From: a virus
Lineage: Duplodnaviria > Heunggongvirae > Uroviricota > Caudoviricetes
Virus record (IMG/VR): IMGVR_UViG_2529293240_000020
Span: 1 to 25,044 of that record
Direction: 5' to 3' (one strand)
DNA: 25,044 nt
The position numbers and the translations under genes were made by a program. Of the stretch, positions 1-25,005 are shown piece by piece (position 1 is the first letter of the stretch; the number at the start of each line of letters is the position of its first letter). A model generated the notes under the pieces. The model was not told the DNA's origin. It worked only from the letters and a program-made list of their open reading frames with translations, and did no database searches.

Positions 1-399
1 AAAGAACGGCGAACCAGCTATAGCCGTGAATTTAAGGTCCGTCTGGCTAAGCAGGCGTTACAGCCTGGGGCTGTTGTTGCCCGGATCGCCAGAGAACACG
101 ATATCAATAATAACCTGCTGTTTAAATGGAAAAGCCAGTACGAGGACGGCTTACTGAGCGATGATGACATACAGGAATGCATGCCTGTCCCGGTGGCTCT
201 GACTGATACGCCGGAGCCGACCAGACCAGTTACAAATCCCTTCTGGCGTAACAAGCATGATGAGCGCCCTGAGGGGGCTCCCGGAAACGTCCCACGGTGC
301 GAGCTGCATCTTAAATCAGGTGTGGTAAAACTGTTTGACCCTCTCACTCCGGAACTGTTACGGGCGCTAATCCGCGAAATGAAAGGGGGTATCCGATGA
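1..399 (+). CDS. IS66-family TnpA (orf1), 5-prime partial at window edge
   Basis: Frame 1 is open from position 1 (KERRTSYSREFKVRLAKQAL...), stop at 397..399 overlapping the tnpB start; helix-turn-helix-like N-terminal region. Confidence 0.7.
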   Translation, partial: KERRTSYSREFKVRLAKQALQPGAVVARIAREHDINNNLLFKWKSQYEDGLLSDDDIQECMPVPVALTDTPEPTRPVTNPFWRNKHDERPEGAPGNVPRCELHLKSGVVKLFDPLTPELLRALIREMKGGIR

Positions 400-635
400 T
401 AACGCTGCCGACCGGTACCAAAATCTGGATCATCGCTGGCATCACAGATATGCGTTGTGGCTTCAATGGCCTGGCTTCGAAGGTGCAGAACACGCTGAAA
501 GATGACCCGTTCTCCGGGCATATCTTCGTCTTCCGGGGCCGCAGTGGCAAAATGGTGAAAATACTGTGGGCCGATCGTGACGGGTTATGCCTGTTCGCCA
601 AACGCCTGGAACGGGGCCGCTTCTCTGGCCGGTGA
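396..635 (+). pseudogene. IS66-family TnpB (orf2), apparently frameshifted
   Basis: ORF ends ...KRLERGRFSGR* at 635, but the expected TnpB continuation (LLWPVTREEVHLTPAQLSMLLEGI) is readable in another frame from ~620, consistent with a 1-nt deletion near 624..626; a second shift may precede the C-terminal WQHPKRTERPGIRI segment. Confidence 0.55.
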
Positions 636-757: not shown

Positions 758-2359
758 ATGAACAATGAACTCCCCGATGATATTGAGCTGCTTAAAGCCA
801 TGTTGCGTAAGCAACAGAGTCGGCTTCGACAGTATGCCTGTCAGATCGCGGGCTATGAGCAGGAAATTGAACGGCTGAAAGCGCAACTCGACAGGTTGCG
901 TCGTATGTTGTTCGGCCAGAGTTCAGAGAAAAAGCGTCATAAGCTTGAAAATCAGATCCGACAGGCAGAAAAACGACTGTCGGAACTGGAAAACCGGCTG
1001 AACACAGCCAGAAATCTTCTGGAAGATGCATCGACAGTCACAGATTCACCTGACACCAGTCCCCCGTCAGAAAACCCGATCGCCAGTAAGCCTGAATCCC
1101 CAGGACGAAAATCTTCACGAAAACCGCTGCCGGCAGAACTTCCCCGGGAGACACATCGCCTTCTGCCTGCTGAAACCAGTTGCCCGGCCTGTGGAGGTGT
1201 TCTGAAAGAAATGGGGGAAACAATCTCAGAGCAACTGGATATCATTAATACCGCCTTTAAAGTTATCGAAACCATACGTCCCAAACTGGCCTGTAGCCGG
1301 TGTGATGTCATCGTTCAGGCACCACTTCCCCCTAAACCGATCGAACACGGTTATGCCAGTGCAGGGTTACTTGCACGGATCCTGGTCAGCAAATATATGG
1401 AACATATCCCTTTATATCGCCAGTCAGAAATATACGCGCGACAGGGCGTGGAGCTGAGCCGTAATACCATGGTGCGCTGGGTATCAGAAATGGCAGACAA
1501 ACTCCGTCCTCTGTATATAGCGCTGAATGACTATGTTCTGGAGGCAGGAAAGGTGCACGCAGATGACACTCCGGTGAAACGTACTGGCCCCGGGGAACGG
1601 AAGACGAAAACGGGTCGTCTGTGGGTATACGTCAGGGATGATCGTAATGCGGGTTCATCCCTGCCGGCAGCCGTCTGGTTCGCGTATTCGGCAGATCGCA
1701 AAGGAGAACATCCGCAGCTCCACCTGGCAAAGTATCAGGGCGTACTGCAGGCTGATGCCTATGCAGGTTATAACGTACTGTACGAAACGGGCCGGGTGAA
1801 GGAAGCCGGGTGCCTGGCCCACGCCCGCCGAAAAATCCATGACGAGGATGTGCGCCGTCCGACAGAAATGACTCAGGAAGCGCTCAGACGGATAGCAGAG
1901 TTATACGACATAGAAGCGGAGATACGTGGCAGTCCGGCAGAGGAACGGCTTGCAGTCAGAAAAGCCAGAAGCGTCCAGTTGATGCAGTCGTTGTACGACT
2001 GGATACAGTTGCAGAGGAAAACGCTGTCGAAACATGCGGAGATGGCGAAGGCGTTCGACTATATCCTGAATCACTGGAATGCGCTGAACGAGTTCTGTCG
2101 TGACGGCTGGGTGGAAATAGACAACAACATCGGTGAAAACGCGTTACGATCGGTGGCGGTTGGAAGAAAAAATTATCTCTTTTTCGGCTCAGACAAGGGA
2201 GGAGAAAGTGCGGCGATCATCTACAGTCTGCTGGTCACCTGCAAACAGAACGAAGTGGAGCCGGAGGACTGGTTGCGCGAAGTGATCGAGAAGCTCAATG
2301 ACTGGCCGTCGAACCAAGTGCATGAACTGCTGCCCTGGAACTTCTCGTCTGTAAAATAA
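758..2359 (+). CDS. IS66-family transposase TnpC (orf3), 533 aa
   Basis: Long ORF with N-terminal coiled-coil/leucine-zipper region, zinc-finger-like CPACGG...CSRC motif and the large catalytic region characteristic of IS66 TnpC. Confidence 0.8.
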
Positions 2360-2725: not shown

Positions 2726-3544
2726 TTAAGCAGCCATCTGATGATATTTTTCCCTGAAGGCTGCCGGGGAGATATTCCCCAGACGAGAGTGACGACGCTG
2801 ACGATTGTAGAAAATCTCAATGTATTCCCGTATTACTGAGATGGCTTCATCCCGGTTATTAAAACGATAGTGGCTCAGGCTCTCATTTTTCAGCGTTCCC
2901 CAGAAGCTTTCCATCGGAGCGTTGTCGTAACAGTTACCTTTACGCGACATTGATGTTTTCAGACCAGACTGCTCCTGTATGACCCGGTAATCGTATGCGC
3001 AGTACTGTGAACCTCGATCAGAGTGGTGGATTAGCCCGGCAGGTGGGCGCTGGCTCCTGAGCGCCATAAACAGGGCTTTACCTGTCAGCTCTTTTGTCAT
3101 GCGCTCTCCCATGGCGTAGCCGACAATTTCGCACGTATAAACATCTTTGATGCCAGCGAGGTACAACCATCCCTCCTGTGTGGCAACATACGTCAGGTCC
3201 GCCACCCAGACCTGATTTGGTGCTGTAGGAGCGAACGTCTGGTTCAGCAGATTTGGCGCAACTGGCAGATTGTGGTTCGGGTTCGTAGTCGCTCTGAACT
3301 TGCGTTTCTGCTTACAGCGTAGCCTTAGCTCCTTACGAAGACGTGCCAGTCGGTCACGACCAACGATGATGCCATTCTCTGCCAGCTCCGTCTGGAACCG
3401 CCGGGTTCCATATGTTTCGCGAGTGCGGATATGTGCCACCTTAATCTCCAGTTTTAGCCGCTCATCACTTTGTTTTCTGTCTGAGGGTTCATGCTGTACC
3501 CAGTTGTAATAACCGCTCCTGGATACACCAAATACCTGACACAT
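2726..3544 (-). CDS. IS600-like transposase OrfB (DDE integrase domain), expressed as an OrfAB fusion by -1 frameshift
   Basis: IS3-family OrfB with DDE catalytic region (HSDRGSQY... and downstream E); the frame overlaps the orfA 3-prime end. Confidence 0.8.
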   Translation of the reverse strand: MCQVFGVSRSGYYNWVQHEPSDRKQSDERLKLEIKVAHIRTRETYGTRRFQTELAENGIIVGRDRLARLRKELRLRCKQKRKFRATTNPNHNLPVAPNLLNQTFAPTAPNQVWVADLTYVATQEGWLYLAGIKDVYTCEIVGYAMGERMTKELTGKALFMALRSQRPPAGLIHHSDRGSQYCAYDYRVIQEQSGLKTSMSRKGNCYDNAPMESFWGTLKNESLSHYRFNNRDEAISVIREYIEIFYNRQRRHSRLGNISPAAFREKYHQMAA

Positions 3545-3579
3545 CGCTTCAATGGGAAATTGTTGTCGCCATTGTTCGA

Positions 3580-3882
3580 TTAACGCGTATTTTTCAGCGA
3601 CTCCTGTGCAAAATACGCTGTTGCTTTTTTTAATATATCTCGCTCAAGGCGAGCTTCATTTAACGCCTTACGCAGTTGCAGAATTTCAGATTCCAGTTCA
3701 GCCACCGTGCGGGAACCAGGAGTACCGAGCCCTTTTCTGGCGGCGGTAACCCATTGTCCTAAAGTGCCTTCAGGAAGGGATAATCGGGAAGCGCCTTCAC
3801 TGATCGAAAGTTGATTTTCAAGAACCGTTCTGACAGCTTCGGCTTTGAACTCTTTAGAGTAACGTTGGGTTTTTCTGCTCAT
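3580..3882 (-). CDS. IS600-like OrfA (HTH plus leucine zipper), 100 aa
   Basis: ATG at 3882..3880, typical IS3-family OrfA length and sequence. Confidence 0.8.
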   Translation of the reverse strand: MSRKTQRYSKEFKAEAVRTVLENQLSISEGASRLSLPEGTLGQWVTAARKGLGTPGSRTVAELESEILQLRKALNEARLERDILKKATAYFAQESLKNTR

Positions 3883-4807: not shown

Positions 4808-6283
4808 TTAAAGCTTGAACTGAATCAGGCCTGCCAGCACACGCAACTGGTTCACCAGATTCGGGTGGCAGATAAAGTTCAGGCGGTTTTTATCGCTGCT
4901 GTCGCGTGTCACCTGAAGCGTGTCCCTGTAATCGCTGAAGTTTTCCACAAGGCCCGCCGGGAGAAGTTCGGTCTGGCAGATATCCAGCAGCTCTGCAGTG
5001 CACAGCTTCGGCGTCATCACCGGCTGCCCCGCATCCAGCGAGTCCAGCACGTCATCATCCGCCAGCTTGTGGCGCGGATAACGGTTCGAGAAACGGTTTT
5101 TAATGATGTAACGGATACGGCCCAGCGTGGCGGGTGACTGCACATCAAGATACGACACATCCGCATCACCGTACTGGTTAACCCAGTACATGGTGATTTC
5201 ACGCTCGATGCAGACGTTATCCCCGGCGTCCACCATGTGCGTGGCAATGCCGTCATGCAGCAGCAGGTTACGTTCCGGCATATCCCAGCGAACATTACGC
5301 GCAGGCGGCAGAATGCCGGTCAGGACCAGCGTCTGAAGCGGACGCGCCGGGTCAATGGCAAGGTGATACGCTGCCGTTGCGCCGTATGACGCGGCCCACA
5401 TCCACGCCGGATGCGGCGACAGGTTGGTGCCGATGCAGCTAATCAGCCAGTCATTGCGGGTTTCACCAAACGTGCCGGTTTCCCCGTGCGTGCCACGAAA
5501 CGCCGTCCACAGCTGCGCTTCCATCATTTTGAGCGGCCCCCAGCGGTTCAGCAGTTCATCACGCAGGGTGTTCAGGCTTTTCGTGTCGGTGAACGGGGCG
5601 ATGATATCGGTAAACCACTCCGGGCCGATGGCCGCAACGGCGTCTGCCATTTCCGGTGTCCCGGTGCCGCCGGTAAACGCGGTTGCGGTCACCTTCACAC
5701 CTGCCGGGAAGGCTTCACCGGTGTGGTAGTTCAGGCGAACGTCGGCACCGTTGCCGGTGACGCCGTGCCAGTTCACGGTCAGCTCCACGGTATCCGTGGC
5801 ATCATCCTTCACCGCAGCGGCCACCTGCGTGGCAGGCTTTTTCGTCACCGCATCAGCAATGGCTTTTGCAATGTTTTCCTTCGTATCCCCGGCGCTCACG
5901 CTCACCTGAACGGACACACCGTTAATCAGCAGTGCCACCGTTCCGGCTTCGGTCGCTGTACCCAGCACGGTCAGCGTGGCTTTTGCGGCAGCGCCTTCAG
6001 GAGCGGCAACCGGCATCGCCCAAGTTTCCGTGTACGTGTTGGCACGACGCAGCATTTTGAGCATTTCAGCCAGCATCGACCCTTTGCCATAAAGCTGGTC
6101 TGCCTGGCTGTCACTGGTGATACGGGTCAGTGACAGGGCGTCTGCGCTGCCGGACGATACCGCATGGCCCATGACCAGAATTTTTCGGCTTTGCGCGGAT
6201 GCACCCTCCAGTGCCTGTGAATTGTCGATATCGATCCAGACAAGCGGGACGCGGATATCATCAGGAATGGAACCCAGCGACAT
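4808..6283 (-). CDS. Phage tail sheath protein (Mu gpL-like), 491 aa
   Basis: Length and sequence character of contractile tail sheath proteins of Mu-like phages; start ATG overlaps the upstream stop (TAATG). Confidence 0.8.
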   Translation of the reverse strand: MSLGSIPDDIRVPLVWIDIDNSQALEGASAQSRKILVMGHAVSSGSADALSLTRITSDSQADQLYGKGSMLAEMLKMLRRANTYTETWAMPVAAPEGAAAKATLTVLGTATEAGTVALLINGVSVQVSVSAGDTKENIAKAIADAVTKKPATQVAAAVKDDATDTVELTVNWHGVTGNGADVRLNYHTGEAFPAGVKVTATAFTGGTGTPEMADAVAAIGPEWFTDIIAPFTDTKSLNTLRDELLNRWGPLKMMEAQLWTAFRGTHGETGTFGETRNDWLISCIGTNLSPHPAWMWAASYGATAAYHLAIDPARPLQTLVLTGILPPARNVRWDMPERNLLLHDGIATHMVDAGDNVCIEREITMYWVNQYGDADVSYLDVQSPATLGRIRYIIKNRFSNRYPRHKLADDDVLDSLDAGQPVMTPKLCTAELLDICQTELLPAGLVENFSDYRDTLQVTRDSSDKNRLNFICHPNLVNQLRVLAGLIQFKL

Positions 6284-6468
6284 TATTTTTTCCCTCTGGT
6301 TTTGTTGTTATTTTTCGGAAGTGTGGTTATTTCCACATCTCCCTCGGCTTCACGGCGCAGCCAGTAAGCGCAGACGTTGAGACGTTCCCCTTCCGGGGAT
6401 AAATGTGCGCCATCCGGTTTACGGACACGGACGTTTTCCCGCGCTGGCTTAATCAGTTTCTGTTCCAT
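6283..6468 (-). CDS. Small Mu-like phage protein preceding the sheath gene (about 61 aa from ATG 6468; alternative ATG at 6483)
   Basis: Conserved small ORF position between neck genes and sheath; stop overlaps the sheath start. Confidence 0.4.
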   Translation of the reverse strand: MEQKLIKPARENVRVRKPDGAHLSPEGERLNVCAYWLRREAEGDVEITTLPKNNNKTRGKK

Positions 6469-7602: not shown

Positions 7603-8036
7603 AGCACCCCTTTCAGGTTGTTACGGGTGAACAGCCGGGCATTGGCACCCACCACAATAATTTTCCCGTTGTCGGTTTCTGCCGGGGTGGCATACGTCGG
7701 CAGGCCCAGGTCACGGGTGCCGTTCGCCATTTCACGCAGGGTTTTAATGGCGTCGTCGTAGCGTTTCTGGATCAGCTCCGTGATTTGATTGTCACGCTCT
7801 GATAACCAGTAAAACGCCAGCGATACCGCCACGCGTTGCAGCGGGCGCGGGATTTCCGTCACCCCCAGCGGCAGCTGGTAGCGGCGGGACAGAAACGAAT
7901 CAATTTCCGCTTCCGCATCACTGATGGCCTGACGGATTTTGTCTTCATCCAGCCCGTTGGTTTCCCGGTTAATCGCCATGTTCCAGACAAGATTGCCGTC
8001 CGCGCGTAACAGATCTTCCTGCGTGATGTATCCCAT
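7599..8036 (-). CDS. Mu gp36-like head-tail connector protein, 145 aa
   Basis: Position downstream of the major head gene in a Mu-type order; overlapping start/stop. Confidence 0.5.
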   Translation of the reverse strand: MGYITQEDLLRADGNLVWNMAINRETNGLDEDKIRQAISDAEAEIDSFLSRRYQLPLGVTEIPRPLQRVAVSLAFYWLSERDNQITELIQKRYDDAIKTLREMANGTRDLGLPTYATPAETDNGKIIVVGANARLFTRNNLKGVL

Positions 8037-8347
8037 CAGCCTTTCTCCGCTTCCCGGACAATCAGATTCGGCTCTGCCATCAGGCGGGTGGCAACCGCAG
8101 CGCTCACCGCCACATCCTCACCGATATGTGACCAGAAACGGCCACAGCGCCAGAACCCGTTTTCAGACACGGCCCTGACGTTCAGCCGGACAGGGACGTC
8201 ACCCTGTACAGCAACCGGGTCTTCAGCCGGACGTGGTTCATTCGCCTGACCGTCAGCCACAATAACGTCTGCCAGCGGTGCCGGGTTTTCCTGTGCAGCG
8301 CTGTTCTTTGCGGCTTTCGCGCCTTTGGTTTCTGCTTTTTCACTCAT
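8036..8347 (-). CDS. Mu-like phage protein (FluMu N-terminal-domain-like), Ala/Pro-rich N-terminus, 103 aa
   Basis: Small ORF directly after the major head gene, typical of Mu-like head modules. Confidence 0.45.
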   Translation of the reverse strand: MSEKAETKGAKAAKNSAAQENPAPLADVIVADGQANEPRPAEDPVAVQGDVPVRLNVRAVSENGFWRCGRFWSHIGEDVAVSAAVATRLMAEPNLIVREAEKG

Positions 8348-17870: not shown

Positions 17871-17906
17871 AGGCATAAAAAAAGCCGGATTTACCGGCTT
17901 CATTGA
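17871..17906 (-). promoter_or_regulatory. Copy A of the ~35-bp repeated dyad element (hairpin AAGCCGG-N5-CCGGCTT plus T-run on the minus strand), beginning 6 nt after the Mor/C-like stop codon
   Basis: Near-identical to 10332..10367; has the structure of a Rho-independent terminator for the minus strand and sits at the distance from the lys start expected for an activator site. Confidence 0.5.
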
Positions 17907-18356
17907 TTAAGGACGTCGTGGCGGACGACGAACGGGGTGAGGCAGGTTCGGGGAGTGGTAAAACAAATCCGGCTGGTATTTATTACACTCCAGACGCCGC
18001 ATCCGCTTGATGGCCTTGTAGACGGTTTTATACGTCACCCCGTAACGCTGAACCAGTTCAGGAATATTATGGCCGTTAAAATCACGCCAGATACGCATAT
18101 CCCGGACAAGATTCTCCAGAATATTCCCCCTCGGAACATAAACCTGCATCCCGCCGATATAGCGACAAATCGCCACAACCAGCTCAAGGGAATGGGCAGG
18201 GTCTGCGCCAATCCTGGCCAGCTCTTTACGCAGCAGTGCGTTCAGTTCAGAAAGTAACGCCGGATAAGCCGTGTTTTCCTGGTAATCGTTAAGGTATTCC
18301 AGAACGCTGTCGTCCCGGAAGTCTTCGAATAAATCCTGCTCTTTCATCTGTTTCAT
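17907..18356 (-). CDS. Mor/C-family transcriptional activator (Mu middle/late gene activator family), 149 aa
   Basis: C-terminal HTH-like region (IPELVQRYGVTYKTVYKAIKR) and size typical of Mu Mor/C proteins; position between the gemA-like gene and the late genes. Confidence 0.7.
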   Translation of the reverse strand: MKQMKEQDLFEDFRDDSVLEYLNDYQENTAYPALLSELNALLRKELARIGADPAHSLELVVAICRYIGGMQVYVPRGNILENLVRDMRIWRDFNGHNIPELVQRYGVTYKTVYKAIKRMRRLECNKYQPDLFYHSPNLPHPVRRPPRRP

Positions 18357-18904
18357 ACAGCAATTCTCCCGCTGTTTCGTGCGCGGGCATACGCACTGGT
18401 CAGTGCATCATAGCCGCGCAGCTCCTGCCCGGTTTCGCTCACAGGTAAAGGCACACCATGTCGGGCAAAGGCTTCACGGATGCAGCGCATATGCCACTGT
18501 TTGAGCGTTTCGAGCACAACCTGCAACGATTCCCCGTGACACCAGGCCAGCGTGGAAACACCCTGACCGCCATTACGTCTGGCTGTCAGGCGTTCAACGT
18601 ATTTGTCCAGCGCAGCGTCGCTGATATCGGAGACGAAACCATCAAGGAACATCTGCTGCCAGATTTTATAAATCTTCTCGCGCGGTGTGACATGCCCCTT
18701 AAAGCGACGGCGGGGATGTTTTTTCTGCTTCTTAAAACCGCGCTCTTTCATGGCATCGAGCACACGTTCCAGTTGTGCAACGGAAAGCTCGCGGCAACTG
18801 GTTTTGCCCGTGCACTGCACCAGAAAGGTGCGGTAAGTGTCATCGTCGAGTTGCAGGTCACGACGGGCAACATGAATTAATTTAATCAGGGATGTGCAGC
18901 TCAT
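18353..18904 (-). CDS. Mu gp16/GemA-like regulatory protein, 183 aa
   Basis: Sequence character (LIKLIHVARRDLQLDDDTYRTFL...GKTSCRELS) and position immediately upstream of the Mor-like gene with ATGA overlap, as in Mu. Confidence 0.55.
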   Translation of the reverse strand: MSCTSLIKLIHVARRDLQLDDDTYRTFLVQCTGKTSCRELSVAQLERVLDAMKERGFKKQKKHPRRRFKGHVTPREKIYKIWQQMFLDGFVSDISDAALDKYVERLTARRNGGQGVSTLAWCHGESLQVVLETLKQWHMRCIREAFARHGVPLPVSETGQELRGYDALTSAYARARNSGRIAV

Positions 18905-19217
18905 TATGTCCCCCCGGATTTAAAATTAATTCGGTGTTGAATAGCTCTTTACTCATTCGATGTAGCACATCGAGGGCGGCAACTGCCGCTACTTTATCCT
19001 GGCTGGCAATGATTTTTCGTAATTCCTCAATAATCCAGGCTGGACTTAATGATTCGGCAATCATCGTGCGTTTTTCTGAAATTAAATTTTCTCTGGCCTG
19101 CTCATAGCGTTGGTATACGACATTATCCAGAAAATCATTTACCTTTTGTTCTGACATGCCACTGGAAATTAAGGTTGCAGCCATTAAATCAGCATCAGTA
19201 ATCATCTGTATTTTCAT
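18882..19217 (-). CDS. Hypothetical early-region protein, 111 aa, AT-rich
   Basis: ATG at 19217; its first 23 nt overlap the reconstructed stop of the IS911-disrupted gene; its end overlaps the gemA-like start. Confidence 0.45.
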   Translation of the reverse strand: MKIQMITDADLMAATLISSGMSEQKVNDFLDNVVYQRYEQARENLISEKRTMIAESLSPAWIIEELRKIIASQDKVAAVAALDVLHRMSKELFNTELILNPGGHNELHIPD

Positions 19218-19301
19218 CTCTTAATACCTTTTCTGGATTCAGGAAAACTGCGCCGGTAACCTCCAGCAGATTCACCAGAGCATGGGTCGCAATTGCTGCA
19301 G
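19195..19301 (-). pseudogene. 3-prime fragment of an early gene disrupted by IS911 (reconstructed ~118-aa ORF)
   Basis: Removing IS911 and one CAG copy joins 20554..20809 to ..19301 in frame: ...NGDCLA/AAIATHALVNLLEVTGAVFLNPEKVLRDENTDDY*. Confidence 0.5.
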
Positions 19302-19373
19302 TGAAGTGGCACACTGAATTTGGCCACCTGAACAGAGGTGATATGCTCACCTCAGAACAACACAGGTGCTCCA

Positions 19374-20542
<1,169 letters not shown>

Positions 20543-20550
20543 CCACTTCA

Positions 20551-20809
20551 CAGCCAGGCAATCACCGTTGTAGCAGGCATTGTCGATAACGCTTTTTATT
20601 ATTCTTATCAGCGATGGCAGTGTGGTGTTTTCCAGAATTTCCAGCCTGAACTGCTTCAGCCAGTATTCATATTCAGCTTCATCAAATGGACGCTCACCCA
20701 TCAGTTCCGTCAGTGTTGCATCGGCCTGCTCTGGCGTATATCCACTGACAACCAGTTGCGCCCGCATTTCAGCCCGATATTTCGGGTCGTCATAAATACG
20801 TTTACTCAT
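20551..20809 (-). pseudogene. 5-prime fragment (86 codons) of the early gene disrupted by IS911; the remaining 24 codons of track ORF 20477..20809 are read from the IS911 end
   Basis: ATG at 20809 overlaps the upstream stop (ATGAGTAA); the frame runs into the IS terminal repeat at 20550. Confidence 0.5.
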
Positions 20810-20984
20810 TTCTTAATGCATCCTCACAATAAAAGATTTCACCGGGATAACGTTTTTGTATGCGCTCCATCACCTGCATACATGCCTGCTCTGTGGGCCA
20901 GATTTTTTCTGTTACAGGTATGGCATCGCAGGCATCATTCCCACAGGTGCCAACCAGCAGGACAAAGCCAATTGACTTAATCAT
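20802..20984 (-). CDS. Small exported protein, 60 aa: N-terminal signal peptide (MIKSIGFVLLVGTCG, possible lipobox) and four cysteines
   Basis: ATG at 20984 overlaps the upstream stop (ATGATTAA); hydrophobic N-terminus followed by Cys. Confidence 0.45.
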   Translation of the reverse strand: MIKSIGFVLLVGTCGNDACDAIPVTEKIWPTEQACMQVMERIQKRYPGEIFYCEDALRNE

Positions 20985-21516
20985 GCCCGCTGATTTCCTG
21001 TGTTTCCGCCGGAACCGGTGAATAATCAAGAATGAGATAGCGCAGGACGTGGTCGGTGATATTCCAGCCACTGGAGCCACAAATAAAACGACCCAGCCGG
21101 ATATCGATATACGCCATCACAAAACGGGGCATTCCCTGTTTGCACATCTCGTCATCCACTTCAGCAACGATGTAAACCGGCTCGCAGGTCAGTACGCCTG
21201 TCGCAAATTCTTTTGCCAGTGCCGGAATGGCGTTACCTTCCAGCCAGGGCAAAGAACGACGGAACGTGCACCATGCAGCATCATCAACCCCTGGCAGCTC
21301 CGTTGTGTTTCGCCTTACAGGTGACGTCAGACGAGGGCGCGGAACGTCATAAAATCCGTTGCATTCGGTGAGCACTCCGGCATCAACCGCATCACGCAGG
21401 AAATACACCATTGACGAGGGCAGCATATTCATTTTTTCAGCCAGAACCCCGCAGGTCAGACGCCCGTAAGCCCGTAATAATGTGCTGACACCGTTCAGAA
21501 CTTTTGCATCAATCAC
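20977..21516 (-). CDS. Hypothetical protein, 179 aa, GTG start with GGAGG Shine-Dalgarno 8 nt upstream
   Basis: GTG at 21516 lies 3 nt after the upstream TAA; the SD is embedded in the last codons of the upstream gene. Confidence 0.5.
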   Translation of the reverse strand: MIDAKVLNGVSTLLRAYGRLTCGVLAEKMNMLPSSMVYFLRDAVDAGVLTECNGFYDVPRPRLTSPVRRNTTELPGVDDAAWCTFRRSLPWLEGNAIPALAKEFATGVLTCEPVYIVAEVDDEMCKQGMPRFVMAYIDIRLGRFICGSSGWNITDHVLRYLILDYSPVPAETQEISGHD

Positions 21517-21519
21517 CGG

Positions 21520-22068
21520 TTATTCCTCCGTCAGTGCCACAAATTCAGAATGTTTAATGCGCTGGCATTCGGCAGGAACCGGTCCCTTAACCTCACCATC
21601 CAGCAGGCACACCTCAAACAAAATGCCGAATCCGTCACGGCTGTGGTGCATCGTCCAGACTGATTTGAGATCAAACATGTTGGGTACAACATCAACCCCG
21701 AGTTCATTACACAACCAGACCGGGAATGTGGGATATTTCCGGAGTTGCTCTTCATGTTCCTGAATAAGCGTCGCATTGTTTCGGCCTTCCGGTGTTGTTA
21801 TATCCGGTACAACGCCATAAAACTGAAATCCACCAATAAACAGTCCGTCTGATTTACCACGCCATAATTCCGGCGCTAATTGATTCATCCAGATACATTC
21901 AACCCGTTCATACCCTCTGTTACTGACAAGGGAAACACCGTCTGCGCCAAACGCACGCTGCAATGAGCAGATGATTTTGTCACGCTTAACAGAAACATCT
22001 TTCAGCCAGCGAATCGTATAACCGTTAGCGGCTGCGTCACTCAGTTTAAAATAAGCATATGCTTTCAT
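21520..22068 (-). CDS. Hypothetical protein, 182 aa (MKAYAYFKLSDAAANGYTIRW...)
   Basis: ATG at 22068 with GAGG 8 nt upstream; the track ORF extends to 22125 but those ATGs lack a comparable SD. Confidence 0.5.
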   Translation of the reverse strand: MKAYAYFKLSDAAANGYTIRWLKDVSVKRDKIICSLQRAFGADGVSLVSNRGYERVECIWMNQLAPELWRGKSDGLFIGGFQFYGVVPDITTPEGRNNATLIQEHEEQLRKYPTFPVWLCNELGVDVVPNMFDLKSVWTMHHSRDGFGILFEVCLLDGEVKGPVPAECQRIKHSEFVALTEE

Positions 22069-22299
22069 ATTCATTTCCTCTGGTCCTGATTCAGGCGCGA
22101 GCAATCCCCTGACGCATCGCGCCATAATTAAAAGAAAGTGAATTAATTAAATATTCGTCGTGGTATTAAATACCGGCTTCCTGTTCAAACGGAATAATAG
22201 AAAAATCTTCAATGCCTGATTTAACTGTAATTCCGGCGACACCTGCGACTGCTTTCGGCTCCAGTAAAATCGCTTCCTTGTTGAGGTAATGACTCCAAC

Positions 22300-22803
22300 T
22301 TACTGATAGTGTTTTATGTTCAGATAATGCCCGATGACCTTGTCATGCAGCTCCACCGATTTTGAGAACGACAGTGACTTCCGTCCCAGCCTTGCCAGAT
22401 GTTGCCTCAGATTCAGATTATGTCGCTCAATGCGCTGAGTGTAACGCTTGCTGATAACGTGCAGCTTTCCCTTCAGGCGTGATTCATACAGCGGCCAGCC
22501 ATCCGTCATCCATACCACGACCTCAAAGGCCGACAGCAGGCTCAGAAGACGCTCCAGTGTGGCCAGAGTGCGTTCACCGAAGACGTGCGCCACAACCGTC
22601 CTCCGTATCCTGTCATACGCGTAAAACAGCCAGCGCTGACGTGATTTAGCACCGACGTAGCCCCAATGTTCGTCCATTTCAGCGCAGACAATCACATCAC
22701 TGCCCGGTTGTATGCGCGAGGTTACCGACTGCGGCCTGAGTTTTTTAAGTGACGTAAAACCGTGTTGAGGCCAACGCCCATAATGCGTGCACTGGCGCGA
22801 CAT
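22300..22803 (-). CDS. insB: IS1 InsB (transposase catalytic part, made as an InsAB-prime fusion by frameshift)
   Basis: Sequence characteristic of IS1 InsB (...[28 protein letters not shown]...). Confidence 0.8.
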
Positions 22804-22997
22804 CCGACGCCATTCATGGCCATATCAATGATTTTCTGGTGCGTACCGGGCTGAGAGGCGGTGTAAGTGAACTGTAGTTGCCATGTTTTACGGCAATGAG
22901 AGCAGAGATAGCGCTGATGTCCGGCAGTGCTTTTGCCGTTACGCACCACGCCTTCAGTAGCGGAGCAGGAAGGACATCTGATGGAAATGGAAGCCAC
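22722..22997 (-). CDS. insA: IS1 InsA (zinc-finger DNA-binding regulator), 91 aa
   Basis: [40 protein letters not shown]... characteristic of IS1 InsA. Confidence 0.85.
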
Positions 22998-23196
22998 GCA
23001 AGCACCTTAAAATCACCATCATACACTAAATCAGTAAGTTGGCAGCATTACCGAACTTCTGGAGTGCAGAATCACCAATCCTAATATTACTACTAAATAG
23101 CTGCGCCTAATAACGCGACACCCGCCGTTTACTGTCTGGTGGCTTAACCTGCAAGGGCTGGCTGAAAGTGGGACACTATGCCGCGCAGCTATTTAG

Positions 23197-24438
23197 TCAC
23201 CCAACTAGCTTCATTCCTTTTATCCCACCTTCAATCATGCTTCCACGATCCGCTGCCATCACAAAATTTGCCCACCATTGCATCATCGGGCGACGCTGTT
23301 CCAGGTAATCGCTGCGGTTATAAGCACGACGAACCTCATTCTTATCCACATGGGCCAATGCTGCCTCAATGGCATCAGGCGGAAAGCCTTGTTCATTAAG
23401 AGCCGTACTGGCAATTGATCTCAGACCATGCGAAACAAGCACACCACCAAAACCTGCGCGTTTTAGTGAGGCGTTAACAGTCTGACTGTTCATAGGCTGG
23501 TTGGGCTTGATACGGCTAGGAAAGATAAATTCTCGGTTGCCGCTTAGCGGTTTCATCATCTCCAGCACAGCTATTGCTTCATCTGACAATGGAACAGTAT
23601 GGTCGCGGTTCATTTTCATGCGTGCTGCGGGAATCTTCCACTCTTGCGCTTCTATGTCTACTTCTTCCCAGCGAGCTTCAGCCGCTTCGGCAGGGCGGGT
23701 AATAGTAAGAAGTTGCCACATGAACAGGCAGCGTGTGGAAAGGCTAATGCTGGCTGTTCGCATTGTCTGCATCAGTTGAGATAGCTGATCCGGTCGAATG
23801 CTGGGCATGTTCTTTTTCTGAGGCTTTTCGAAGGCTTTACCGATATTAACGCTGGGAACAGCATCAATCAGCCCTGTGTTCTGGGCATAGATCATGACCT
23901 CATTAATACGTTGACACAGGCGACGAACCGTTTCCAGTGCTCCTCTGGCCTGAACCGGTTGTACGGCCTGAACCAGTGTATGAGCTTTAATATCTGTAAC
24001 GCTAACGTCGCCAATCGCAGGAAAGACATCTCTTTCAAGAGAGCGCCAGATATCTTCCGCATAGTCCTCTGTCACACTGGCTTTCTTCACATTCCACCAA
24101 CGTTCAGCTACGAGCTGGAAAGTATTGGTTTTGGCTTCCAGCGAACTACGCAATTGTTCTTGCTGATGTTCCTGCGGATCAATCTGTTTAGCTAGGAGTG
24201 AGCGGGACTCTGCACGGTAGTTTCTGGCATCGGCAAGGGTAACTGACGGGTAAGGGCCTATGCTTTTCTTTGCTCGTTTCTTGGTGACAGGGCGAATGTA
24301 GCGAAACTGCCAGATTTTACTCCCGCTGGATTTAATGAGTAGCTCAAGGCCATCGCCATCATAGAGAACGTAGTCCGCTTCCTTGGGTTTAGCAGATTCG
24401 ATTTCCTTAACGGATAGAGGTTTGGTTTGTCTTGCCAT
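23197..24438 (-). CDS. int: Tyrosine recombinase / integrase, P4-type (CP4-57 IntA-like), 413 aa, apparently intact
   Basis: Downstream of ssrA in the same orientation with a 204-bp gap; catalytic H-x-x-R (HGLRS) and Tyr (AYNRSDY) motifs; N-terminus MARQTKPLSVKEIESAKPKEADYVLYDGDGLELLIKSSGSK typical of P4-family integrases. Confidence 0.85.
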   Translation of the reverse strand: MARQTKPLSVKEIESAKPKEADYVLYDGDGLELLIKSSGSKIWQFRYIRPVTKKRAKKSIGPYPSVTLADARNYRAESRSLLAKQIDPQEHQQEQLRSSLEAKTNTFQLVAERWWNVKKASVTEDYAEDIWRSLERDVFPAIGDVSVTDIKAHTLVQAVQPVQARGALETVRRLCQRINEVMIYAQNTGLIDAVPSVNIGKAFEKPQKKNMPSIRPDQLSQLMQTMRTASISLSTRCLFMWQLLTITRPAEAAEARWEEVDIEAQEWKIPAARMKMNRDHTVPLSDEAIAVLEMMKPLSGNREFIFPSRIKPNQPMNSQTVNASLKRAGFGGVLVSHGLRSIASTALNEQGFPPDAIEAALAHVDKNEVRRAYNRSDYLEQRRPMMQWWANFVMAADRGSMIEGGIKGMKLVG

Positions 24439-24458
24439 TGCCGGGTTTCCATAGTTTT

Positions 24459-24509
24459 AGGCACCTCAAAGACAATATAGCTTTATGAAGTGCCTAACAA
24501 GGTGCCTAA
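24459..24509 (-). promoter_or_regulatory. Three copies of an 8-mer (AGGTGCCT / GTGCCTAA) in the ssrA-int intergenic region; candidate arm-type or operator sites and promoter region of int
   Basis: AGGCACCT at 24459..24466 (inverted), GTGCCTAA at 24490..24497 and 24502..24509, within 70 bp upstream of the int start. Confidence 0.3.
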
Positions 24510-24563
24510 AAGGATCGGATTTAATTAGTTGGCATCAGACTTCGCGGGACAAATTCGGGGCAC

Positions 24564-24596
24564 AAAAAAGCCCGCAGGGCTTGCGCCGTGCGGGCT
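24564..24596 (-). terminator. Rho-independent terminator downstream of ssrA (GC-rich 11-bp stem with one mismatch, then UUUUUU on the minus strand)
   Basis: GCCCGCAGGGC-TTGC-GCCGTGCGGGC followed by the complement of the A-run at 24564..24569; lies ~45 nt past the tmRNA 3-prime end. Confidence 0.5.
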
Positions 24597-24642
24597 CTTA
24601 GGACTTCATCGGATGACTCTGGTAATCACCGATGGAGAATTT

Positions 24643-25005
24643 TGGTGGAGCTGGCGGGAGTTGAACCCGCGTCCGAAATTCCTACATCCTCGGTACTACA
24701 TGCTTAGTCAGTCTTTACATTCGCTTGCCAGCTGCGGACGGACACGCCACTAACAAACTAGCCTGATTAAGTTTTAACGCTTCAACCCCAGGCAGGGCTT
24801 CCACGCGATCTCTTTTGGGTTTGACCTCTCTTGATCCCCGTCCTAAGAGCGGAGGCTAGGGAGAGAGGGCTCTAAGCAGGTTATTAAGCTGCTAAAGCGT
24901 AGTTTTCGTCGTTTGCGACTATTTTTTGCGGCTTTTTACGAGGCCAACCGCCCCTCGGCATGCACCTTGGGTTTCGCAAATCCCGTCGAATCCAGAATCA
25001 GCCCC
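24643..25005 (-). ncRNA. ssrA: tmRNA (SsrA, 10Sa RNA), 363 nt
   Basis: Reverse complement reads GGGGCTGATTCTGGATTCGACGGG ... GCAAACGACGAAAACTACGCTTTAGCAGCTTAATAA (tag-peptide ORF) ... GGACGCGGGTTCAACTCCCGCCAGCTCCACCA, matching enterobacterial ssrA as recalled. Confidence 0.9.

Follow-up and report, generated by a model that had tools for sequence, protein, structure and literature searches.

The DNA analysed here (the window, 25,044 nucleotides at full length) carries a block of small genes on its minus strand, between a remnant of gam and homologues of gemA and mor of bacteriophage Mu. The features are listed in Table 1. The three minus-strand open reading frames of 182, 179 and 60 aa and the IS911-split gene described in an earlier note on this DNA were all found in their places; they are called genes A to D in this study. 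The note had placed these genes as a four-gene operon at the head of the Mu-like early operon, running directly into the gemA-like gene. Instead, a fifth gene (E) intervenes between D and gemA. The block is located from gam to gemA, with the gam remnant directly upstream, and the true head of the operon is deleted in the window.

Table 1 Features of the gam-to-mor region and of the inserted elements in the window
Feature	Position	Strand	Description
IS1	22285-23052	minus	23-nt terminal inverted repeats at 22285-22307 and 23030-23052; insA/insB ORFs
gam 3′ remnant	22166-22284	minus	last 39 codons and stop; 97% identical to Mu Gam residues 136-174
gam-A intergenic region	22069-22165	minus	GC-rich hairpin GGCGCGA...TCGCGCC; shared with Mu up to CCTGAAnCAG
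Gene A	21520-22068	minus	182 aa; ATG start, AGAGGA 8 nt upstream
Gene B	20977-21516	minus	179 aa; GTG start
Gene C	20802-20984	minus	60 aa
Gene D, 5′ part	20551-20809	minus	codons 1-86 and one base
IS911 (IS3 family) within gene D	19302-20550	plus	inverted-repeat arms mapped
IS911 orfA/orfB	19338-19676, 19703-20542		from the ORF list
Gene D, 3′ part	19195-19298	minus	last 34 codons and TGA stop
Gene E	18882-19217	minus	111 aa; fifth coupled early gene
gemA homologue	18353-18904	minus	PF06252 GemA, E=2e-32
mor homologue (middle-operon activator)	17907-18356	minus	PF08765 Mor, E=4e-30
Terminator-like hairpin and T-run	17881-17901	minus	directly 3′ of mor; consensus terminator scan

The chaining of the genes through overlapping stops and starts was confirmed, and the junctions read precisely as the earlier note gave them: ...GGAGGAATAA-CCG-GTG for A/B, ATGATTAA for B/C and ATGAGTAA for C/D. 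Gene E shares 23 nt with each of its neighbours, at the end of D and at the start of gemA. The terminator-like hairpin after mor, from the consensus scan, stands at the end of the early transcription unit. The block is indeed AT-richer than the late module, its GC content being 0.47-0.53 as compared with 0.56-0.62 for most of the late module. The same layout is observed in Mu, SfMu, Yersinia Mu-like phages and E. coli prophages. The dN/dS values are 0.43 for A, 0.17 for B, 0.13 for C, 0.14 for D and 0.12 for E. These values (0.12-0.43) indicate purifying selection on all five genes.

Gene D is interrupted by IS911. Three bp of the target are duplicated; the two copies, at 19299-19301 and 20551-20553, flank the element and read CAG on the plus strand and CTG on the minus strand. 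Pfam HTH_Tnp_1 and rve are recorded on identical loci. When IS911 and one copy of the duplication were excised, a D open reading frame of 120 aa was obtained. Thus, the split was real, while the length of about 118 aa given previously has to be corrected to 120 aa. The reconstructed D is identical to the intact gene in locus L088, and intact 120-aa copies are present in L088, L090, L092 and L093. The IS911-excised region differs from L092 by 1 base in 3126. The D protein matches phrog_27371 and is confined to E. coli and Shigella; with a pI of 4.5 and a net charge of -9, it is strongly acidic. Two matches were discarded. The match of truncated D to phrog_510 ("DNA primase") is an artefact, in which residues 84-110 are encoded by the IS911 end, and the match of D to a designed-repeat protein in PDB (E=0.06) is noise.

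Gene B shows 86% identity to Mu gp11 over 176 aa. It matches PF25754 (Gp11_C) with 131.8 bits (cutoff 27, E=1.1e-38) over profile positions 1-78 of 78. In all 63 gam-to-gemA intervals surveyed (see below), it is positioned after gam or after A. Judged by score, full-length similarity and position, B is the orthologue of Mu gp11. The protein is laid out as a putative winged-helix N-terminus, a disordered or flexible linker and the Gp11_C domain, so that B may bind nucleic acid. MIF matches to B in the PDB sequence searches (E about 0.7) were regarded as noise. A B-family scan of genome contigs yielded a single locus, in Citrobacter braakii, because the contig collection has one genome per species. 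The exact B protein was found in complete prophages, in which ner, the transposition genes A and B, kil and gam are followed by genes A, B, C, D (120 aa), E, gemA and mor.

Gene A is 100% identical to ORF11 of SfMu and matches phrog_2260. The exact A sequence carries the NCBI name DUF5420. In the Pfam search, A had no family at E<=1 and missed the gathering threshold of DUF5420 (PF17457). A profile of the A family, however, finds proteins that score above the cutoff of DUF5420, among them P0136 with 97.7 bits. Moreover, locus L084 has a DUF5420 protein (53 bits) in the slot of A before B, and this protein ends in the tail KHSEFIAITEE as in A. By transitive homology together with shared position and motif, A appears to be a divergent member of DUF5420; because A itself is without a Pfam match at E<=1, it is an outlier of this family. 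Alleles of A are conserved at the ends and divergent in the centre. In the central part, dN/dS is about 0.4, with synonymous differences at about half of the synonymous sites, and A is the fastest-evolving of the five genes. An AF2 model of A (pLDDT 84) had no fold match in PDB, and Foldseek against BFVD returned only uncharacterised phage proteins of similar size. A is an optional cassette between gam and the gp11 homologue. Whenever A is present in the surveyed intervals, it stands directly upstream of B. Furthermore, its C-terminal tail, KHSEF[VI]A[LI]TEE, is retained in a relative for which tblastn finds no better match to A than one of about 27% identity. On the basis of this constant placement and the retained tail, A and B may work together. 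The A-B pair could therefore be more than two independent cassettes, which counts against full cassette independence.

Gene C matches phrog_16556 and encodes a protein with a hydrophobic N-terminus and four invariant cysteines. It co-occurs with neither gp12 nor gp13 in any of the intervals, and C appears to be a cassette alternative to Mu gp12/gp13. Homologues with about 50% identity are present in non-Mu temperate phages, beside RecE/RecT or Lar. For example, members of the C family directly follow RecE/RecT in Aeromonas phage pAEv1818, and those of Yersinia phages have Lar and methyltransferase genes nearby. We considered whether C is a divergent gp13, since both are 60 aa and have TCGN in common, but only 6-7 residues align. 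The idea that C is a lipoprotein was also rejected. The lipobox [LVI][ASTVI][GAS]C is canonical in only one of three sequence variants: V-S-S-C of Yersinia fits, V-G-T-C of the window has T at -1, and the Aeromonas variant has P at -1. In the n-region, the Aeromonas and Yersinia homologues have no basic residue, and the window protein has a single lysine (K3).

Gene E matches phrog_1988 and is a helical protein related to SfMu ORF14, with 42% identity. Weak matches of E to GpsB/DivIVA-like proteins (21 bits against a cutoff of 91) and to DUF6308 (19.6 bits against a cutoff of 27) were discarded; both are probably caused by coiled-coil composition.

According to the earlier note, no family was recognisable for any of the frames. 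This is not the case for B (Gp11_C, Mu gp11) and A (SfMu ORF11, DUF5420), while C, D and E belong to PHROGs of unknown function. In Pfam and NCBIfam, none of A, C, D and E had a significant family match. The PDB sequence searches, by single sequence and by profile, gave nothing credible for any of the five. In PADLOC-DB v2, A, B and D had zero matches, and C and E matched only at E of about 0.02 on short partial stretches. A, C and D had no direct homology to Mu gp11-gp14; only B corresponds to gp11. When the cassette families A-E, gp12-gp15, Mu_54, gam and gemA were compared by hhalign, the sensitivity of which is limited here by shallow alignments, the best probability was 13.7%, and thus no hidden relationships were seen. 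In the literature on DUF5420, Mup11-14 and the functions of the semi-essential region, we found only the description of SfMu and general statements. Thus, structure, defence-system and literature searches gave no functional match, and the genes stay without an assigned function, as the note had it. Membership in Gp11_C or DUF5420 says nothing on mechanism, because both are families of unknown function.

We surveyed 63 complete gam-to-gemA intervals, mostly from IMG/VR prophage calls in enterobacteria. Because near-duplicate loci are included, the counts are not counts of independent events. The intervals are 1.1-5.2 kb long and have 21 architectures. B is present in all 63, A in 30, E in 23, C in 18 and D in 3. 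A is accompanied by C in 5 of its 30 intervals, and A, C, D and E are never present together (0 of 63). Other intervals contain further unannotated cassettes. With gam upstream, gemA and mor downstream and varying architectures, the block does correspond to the variable semi-essential early genes of a Mu-type phage, as had been proposed; five genes that occur in so many combinations are no unit. The full A-B-C-D-E set with intact D was found in several Shigella and E. coli prophages, whose identity to the window after excision of the IS is 99.7-99.97%. In the intact copies L088, L090 and L093, the side with ner, the transposition genes A and B, and Pe is present. Owing to this degree of identity, the full-set copies represent a single lineage. 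No complete E. coli genome had A, B, C and D together. The full set thus appears to be linked only in one near-identical Shigella/E. coli prophage lineage. Linkage of the gene set in other Mu-like prophages, which the earlier note had named as a test of its own proposal, is absent across Mu-like phages generally.

We compared the block with the corresponding region of Mu (gam, gp11-gp14, gemA and mor; NC_000929, 5801-9170). The flanking genes, the strand, the stop/start chaining and the intergenic region 3′ of gam are common to both, and a terminator is predicted in the corresponding place after mor. The functions of gp11-gp14 are unknown, as are those of the block genes. In contrast, Mu is without A, of which only the last 12 nt or so remain before gp11. 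Furthermore, gp12, gp13 and gp14 occupy the slots of C, D and E, and there is no sequence or profile similarity between the two sets. The operon of the window has been beheaded by IS1. In SfMu (NC_027382), the B homologue follows directly after ORF11 as ORF12, and DNA identity is 93% over the shared parts. SfMu, however, has gp12-, gp13- and gp14-type genes after B, is without C and D, and is intact and inducible, whereas the prophage of the window is decayed. The authors of the SfMu description found ORF11 and ORF14 to be missing from Mu and D108, and called them unique and without a known function (PMC4406740).

At the upstream edge, IS1 cuts gam at codon 136. RefSeq labels the remaining stretch Gam family protein in matching E. 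coli records, and the identical loci L089 and L091 carry a Pfam DDE_Tnp_IS1 annotation. IS1 stands in place of the whole left arm: repressor c, ner, the transposition genes A and B, kil and the early promoter Pe are missing. The spacer between gam and A aligns with Mu 6316-6440. Its hairpin was rejected as a structured RNA, since the fold z-score of -1.1 is insignificant and Rfam finds only tmRNA in the window. Promoter-like sites were not above chance in a simple sigma-70 consensus scan, and neither the five genes nor the stretch directly before them contains one; a scan of this simple kind may miss weak transcription such as read-through from IS1. Past the tail sheath gene there are IS3-family and IS66 elements, and both ends of the prophage have thus been replaced by IS elements. 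At least two assemblies, L089 and L091 (100% identity), have the IS elements in exactly this arrangement. The host is probably Shigella flexneri. The locus is a dead, IS-bounded Mu-like remnant, which is fused to an island next to ssrA, and is not an active operon.

Taken together, these results suggest, with a probability of about 80%, that the block is the distal semi-essential early region of a Mu/SfMu-type phage, made of independent accessory cassettes and preserved in a dead prophage remnant. Intact relatives have the order ner-A-B-kil-...-gam-[A]-B-[C]-[D]-[E]-gemA-mor. As in Mu, Pe would give one long transcript of all these genes, which would be translated in chain through the overlapping stops and starts. 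B, the gp11 orthologue, would be the fixed element, and A, C, D and E would be independent, exchangeable cassettes filling the hotspot of Mu gp12, gp13 and gp14. The cassette reading is based on the 21 architectures, the mutual exclusion of C and gp12/gp13, the remnant of A in Mu, the allele pattern of A and the presence of C in unrelated phages. Most likely, the products are early proteins that the phage can do without but that raise its yield, each by adjusting one host process or by countering one host barrier; this role is assigned from position and from analogy with kil, gam and gemA. In the window, the genes are relics: Pe and all else that lay before gam codon 136 were lost to IS1, D was broken by IS911, and the tail end of the prophage was replaced by IS elements. 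Early operons of temperate phages have "moron"-type hotspots, for example around the recombination genes of lambda-like phages. These likewise contain small, packed genes that are individually dispensable and horizontally exchanged between conserved anchors. Classical morons differ in that the block cassettes are without their own promoter and terminator and ride on the early transcript.

We weighed four other explanations. That the open reading frames arose by chance and are not genes has practically no likelihood. Only the small size of C speaks for it, and it is already refuted by the PHROG family found for every ORF, the conserved homologues, the dN/dS values and the annotation of A in the plaque-forming phage SfMu. 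It is hardly more credible that the four (really five) genes are one coherent, co-selected multi-protein system of new function. Tight translational coupling at all junctions and the complete set with intact D in several prophages are consistent with such a system. However, equally tight coupling extends to gemA and mor and is general for the operon of Mu, the complete sets are one lineage, and no complete E. coli genome has A, B, C and D. This explanation is already largely refuted by the co-occurrence survey, in which the genes assort independently (A+C+D+E in none, D in 3 of 63, C in 5 of the 30 intervals with A). Domestication of the remnant, in which the surviving early genes would be expressed and kept to the benefit of Shigella (lysogenic conversion), is very unlikely as well. 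The reading frames of A, B, C and E are intact, and the IS-bearing arrangement is 100% identical in L089 and L091, but identity of two assemblies from one species is uninformative on selection. The semi-essential region of Mu, described as "largely uncharacterized", is transcribed from Pe, and it has been proposed that the host profits when semi-essential genes are transcribed from Pe at a low level in Mu lysogens (PMC3820752). In the window, however, Pe is deleted, the block has no promoter-like site above chance, D is disrupted and IS elements are located at both prophage ends.

The remaining explanation is that one or more of A, C, D and E are counter-defence or superinfection-exclusion factors and that gam-to-gemA is an arms-race locus. 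Such a factor might, for example, inhibit a restriction, RecBCD-linked or abortive-infection system, or it might be a small protein of the envelope that keeps out secondary infection. We consider this possible but on balance doubtful; it refines the reading as accessory cassettes instead of replacing it. The interval is hypervariable in architecture and length and adjoins gam, which encodes a nuclease inhibitor. A evolves fastest and has no fold match in PDB, D is strongly acidic and taxonomically narrow, and C has its hydrophobic N-terminus, its cysteines and its homologues near recombination, restriction-alleviation and methyltransferase genes. Acidity alone is nevertheless weak evidence, and dN/dS is below 1 wherever dS is large enough to measure. 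The family, PDB and PADLOC searches gave no sequence or structure link to a known defence or anti-defence protein, and neither the lipobox nor the charged n-region holds across the C variants. A further step, that the interval is a counter-defence or host-takeover hotspot in which at least one block cassette has a new activity, is somewhat less likely still. If so, the A and B pair next to Gam could be involved and might act on the nucleoid or on the ends of DNA. Another candidate for the activity is C, a four-cysteine mini-protein shared with RecET-type phages.

For decades, the semi-essential early region of Mu has been an acknowledged blank, with roles assigned only for kil, gam, gemA and mor. 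The window contains no new kind of element, and the comparison gives a usable map of the interval. On this map, gp11 (B) is invariant, DUF5420 (A) is optional and directly before B, and the other slots are filled by interchangeable small genes, some of which are common to unrelated temperate phages. For genome annotation, the locus should be treated as the remnant described above and not as an active operon. For Mu and SfMu, the map indicates which genes to delete or express first.

Five minus-strand genes, A to E, are chained between the remnant of gam and gemA. The junctions quoted in the earlier note (GGAGGAATAA-CCG-GTG, ATGATTAA and ATGAGTAA) are exact, and further along the chain D and E overlap by 23 nt, E and gemA by 23 nt, and gemA and mor by 4 nt. 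That observation was largely accurate; however, its gene count and its placement of the block were wrong. Four genes had been described as running to gemA, with the coupled gene E overlooked, and the block had been placed at the head of the operon, which has been replaced by IS1. The GC content is 0.47-0.53 in the A-E block versus 0.56-0.62 for most late genes. The gam-A spacer contains a GC-rich inverted repeat (GGCGCGA-N16-TCGCGCC, 22085-22120, minus strand), which is also conserved in Mu; the fold energy is ordinary (z = -1.1) and it had no match in Rfam.

Features of the window
Feature	Position	Strand	Remarks
167-aa ORF	18-521		no Pfam match
IS66-family transposase	758-2359		beyond tail sheath gene
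IS3-family element	2726-3882		beyond tail sheath gene
Tail sheath gene	4808-6283		
Terminator-like hairpin	17881-17901		after mor
mor	17907-18356	minus	
gemA	18353-18904	minus	
E	18882-19217	minus	111 aa; phrog_1988; between IS911-split D and gemA
D	20551-20809 + 19195-19298	minus	120 aa; interrupted by IS911
IS911	19302-20550		3-bp target duplication
C	20802-20984	minus	60 aa
B	20977-21516	minus	179 aa; GTG start
A	21520-22068	minus	182 aa; ATG start; AGAGGA 8 nt upstream
gam-A spacer			97 nt; between gam remnant and A
gam remnant	22166-22284	minus	last 39 codons; 97% identical to Mu Gam residues 136-174
IS1, complete	22285-23052	minus	terminal inverted repeats
P4-type integrase	23197-24438	minus	Pfam assignment made on identical loci
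tmRNA gene (ssrA)	24643-25005	minus	

When IS911 and one copy of the target duplication are excised, D is identical to the 120-aa gene of intact prophages, and the IS-excised region differs by 1 base in 3126 from a prophage copy with intact D (L092). The last 24 codons of the truncated D ORF (110 aa) lie in the IS911 inverted repeat (20480-20550). Its match to phrog_510 ("DNA primase") was rejected as spurious because it comes from this IS911-encoded tail, which aligns with the C-terminal end of the profile. This suggests that the phrog_510 profile is contaminated by peptides encoded by IS ends.

In RefSeq, the order of the best E. coli matches is ner, transposase, MuB-type ATPase, several small genes, Gam, A-E-type genes, gp16/GemA, Mor and endolysin. 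In Mu, the order is gam, gp11, gp12, gp13, gp14, (gp15), gemA and mor. Because both orders put such genes between gam and gemA, the A-E block makes up the distal half of the semi-essential region rather than the operon head. The head is gone from the window since IS1 replaced all sequence upstream of gam codon 136; therefore, the prophage left arm (c, ner, the transposition genes A and B, and kil) is absent. The late region also ends early: after the tail sheath gene there are a few small ORFs, followed by IS3-family and IS66 elements. The element is a decayed prophage remnant, damaged at both ends. Via IS1, the Mu-like remnant is joined to a P4-type integrase adjoining ssrA (22166-25005), and it appears to be fused to an ssrA-adjacent island. 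In a consensus scan, no promoter-like site exceeded chance and none was located inside the five genes or just upstream of them. In the window, A to E are probably silent relics. The Mu records disagree on the interval before gemA: RefSeq NC_000929 annotates gp15 on the reverse strand (7896-8162), and the updated GenBank record AF083977 has a forward 55-aa gene, Mu_54, and a "semi-early promoter" (7960-8127 and 8151-8217). The counterpart of this position in the window is a forward gene, E, which overlaps the start of gemA.

Each of the five proteins matched a PHROG family. Median dN/dS values, calculated pairwise against distinct alleles by the Nei-Gojobori method, were 0.43 (A), 0.17 (B), 0.13 (C), 0.14 (D) and 0.12 (E). 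These matches and ratios exclude chance ORFs, and the five ORFs are real genes. An exact-sequence look-up of B retrieved two assemblies (AFOW01000037.1 and CP100042.1) with the same arrangement and both IS elements at 100% identity, and four other records, which are complete prophages with intact D. The exact proteins occur under the names Shigella flexneri, S. sonnei, S. boydii and E. coli. The 110-aa IS911-truncated form of D is recorded under S. flexneri, which is very probably the source of the window.

We surveyed 80 IMG/VR loci anchored on B, together with reference loci, and scored gam, A to E, Mu gp12-gp15 and gemA by tblastn. Among the 63 complete gam-to-gemA intervals obtained, 1.1 to 5.2 kb in length, there were 21 architectures. 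B, the anchor, was present in 63 of 63, A in 30, C in 18, D in 3, E in 23, gp12 in 37, gp13 in 29 and gp14 in 28. C never occurred with gp12 or gp13 in one of these intervals; therefore, C and these two genes are alternatives for a single slot. D was present only with C and E. A, when present, was always directly before B, and its downstream partners varied freely. The combination of A, C, D and E was absent from the 63 intervals; by exact look-up, it was found only in a near-identical Shigella/E. coli lineage, and A, B, C and D together were not found in any complete E. coli genome. Cassette boundaries can be discerned in the DNA. When Mu (NC_000929, 6316-6440) is compared with the window (21520-22165), the gam-A spacer is common up to CCTGAAnCAG, after which Mu skips straight to the final ~12 nt of A (ACTGAGGAATAA), before gp11. 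This remnant of A in Mu reads as the trace of a cassette that was cleanly gained or lost. Further small genes without a significant Pfam family were observed in other intervals (L059, 5052-6600; L065, 4330-5910; L084, 2759-7189); their products include a protein of 183 aa, whose Myb-like repeats are weak and below threshold, one of 110 aa, an E-like one of 102-124 aa and several more.

B is 86% identical to Mu gp11 over 176 residues and scores 132 bits against Pfam Gp11_C; this similarity makes it the orthologue of Mu gp11. Its relatives number 221, and the best 120 of them come from E. coli, Salmonella and further enterobacteria. The AF2 model is only moderate (pLDDT 63): three helices form the N-terminal domain, and residues 56-88 are a disordered linker. 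The C-terminal domain is well predicted; there was no partner for it among the top matches listed. Because B is invariant and carries a putative winged-helix domain, it is likely to bind nucleic acid.

A is 100% identical to SfMu ORF11 and is named DUF5420 by NCBI. A Pfam scan of A alone found no family. The A-family profile retrieved only 14 proteins from 1.84 billion representative proteins, and distant members among its matches exceed the DUF5420 threshold. All A relatives share an invariant C-terminal tail, KHSEF[V/I]A[L/I]TEE (window 21520-21575). A bona fide DUF5420 protein, which occupies the slot before B in L084 (3418-3996), keeps this tail (KHSEFIAITEE), although by tblastn its best match to A reaches just ~27% identity. 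The last codons of the tail double as the GGAGG ribosome-binding site of B, and therefore protein-level and ribosome-binding-site constraints are inseparable here. Because A always adjoins B and its tail is conserved, A, where present, may act together with B. A alleles share 85-100% DNA identity at both ends versus 50-70% in the centre (residues 28-148), where dN/dS is ~0.4.

The N-terminus of C is hydrophobic, and the protein contains four invariant cysteines; a canonical lipobox is present in only one of three sequence variants. Homologues of C with ~50% identity occur in unrelated integrase-type temperate phages (L098, 3501-3686; L099, 3495-3665). The copy in Aeromonas phage pAEv1818 immediately follows RecE/RecT, and those in Yersinia enterocolitica vB_YenM phages have Lar restriction alleviation and methyltransferase genes nearby. 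Hafnia phages also carry C. D is acidic (pI 4.5) and belongs to a tiny family: its 9 clusters all come from E. coli or Shigella, and a Klebsiella phage supplies one further match, at 37%. E shares 42% identity with SfMu ORF14. None of the five proteins had a credible match among defence-system models, NCBIfam families or solved structures.

In an intact phage, such genes ride the long early transcript from Pe, which also carries the transposition genes and "largely uncharacterized" semi-essential functions (PMC3820752). Beyond the anatomy, gene identities, cassette behaviour and decay observed here, we propose by analogy that each protein alone would be a dispensable early modifier of the host or of phage replication, like the neighbours kil, gam and gemA. 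A more specific idea, that one or more cassettes serve counter-defence or exclusion, is tentative and on balance unlikely; it would be compatible with the hypervariability of the gam-to-gemA interval and its location beside gam, with A evolving faster and D being acidic, and with the genes found near C in other phages (RecE/RecT, Lar and methyltransferase). Domestication of the remnant by the host is very improbable because the promoter is missing and IS elements have damaged the locus. One coherent system of four or five genes is likewise very improbable; the co-occurrence data contradict it.

The four-gene unit of the earlier note thus gives way to exchangeable cassettes, and its statement that no family could be recognised does not hold for B (Gp11_C/Mu gp11), for A (SfMu ORF11/DUF5420) or, given the PHROG matches, for any of the others. 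Its interpretation of the block as variable semi-essential early genes of unknown function is supported. A to E have their closest known relatives in the semi-essential region of Mu and in the matching genes of SfMu; the SfMu authors noted that two of the latter, ORF11 and ORF14, are missing from Mu and D108 and have no known function (PMC4406740). Therefore, the locus is not a new kind of system but a new mosaic of a known region type, built from already catalogued hypothetical genes.
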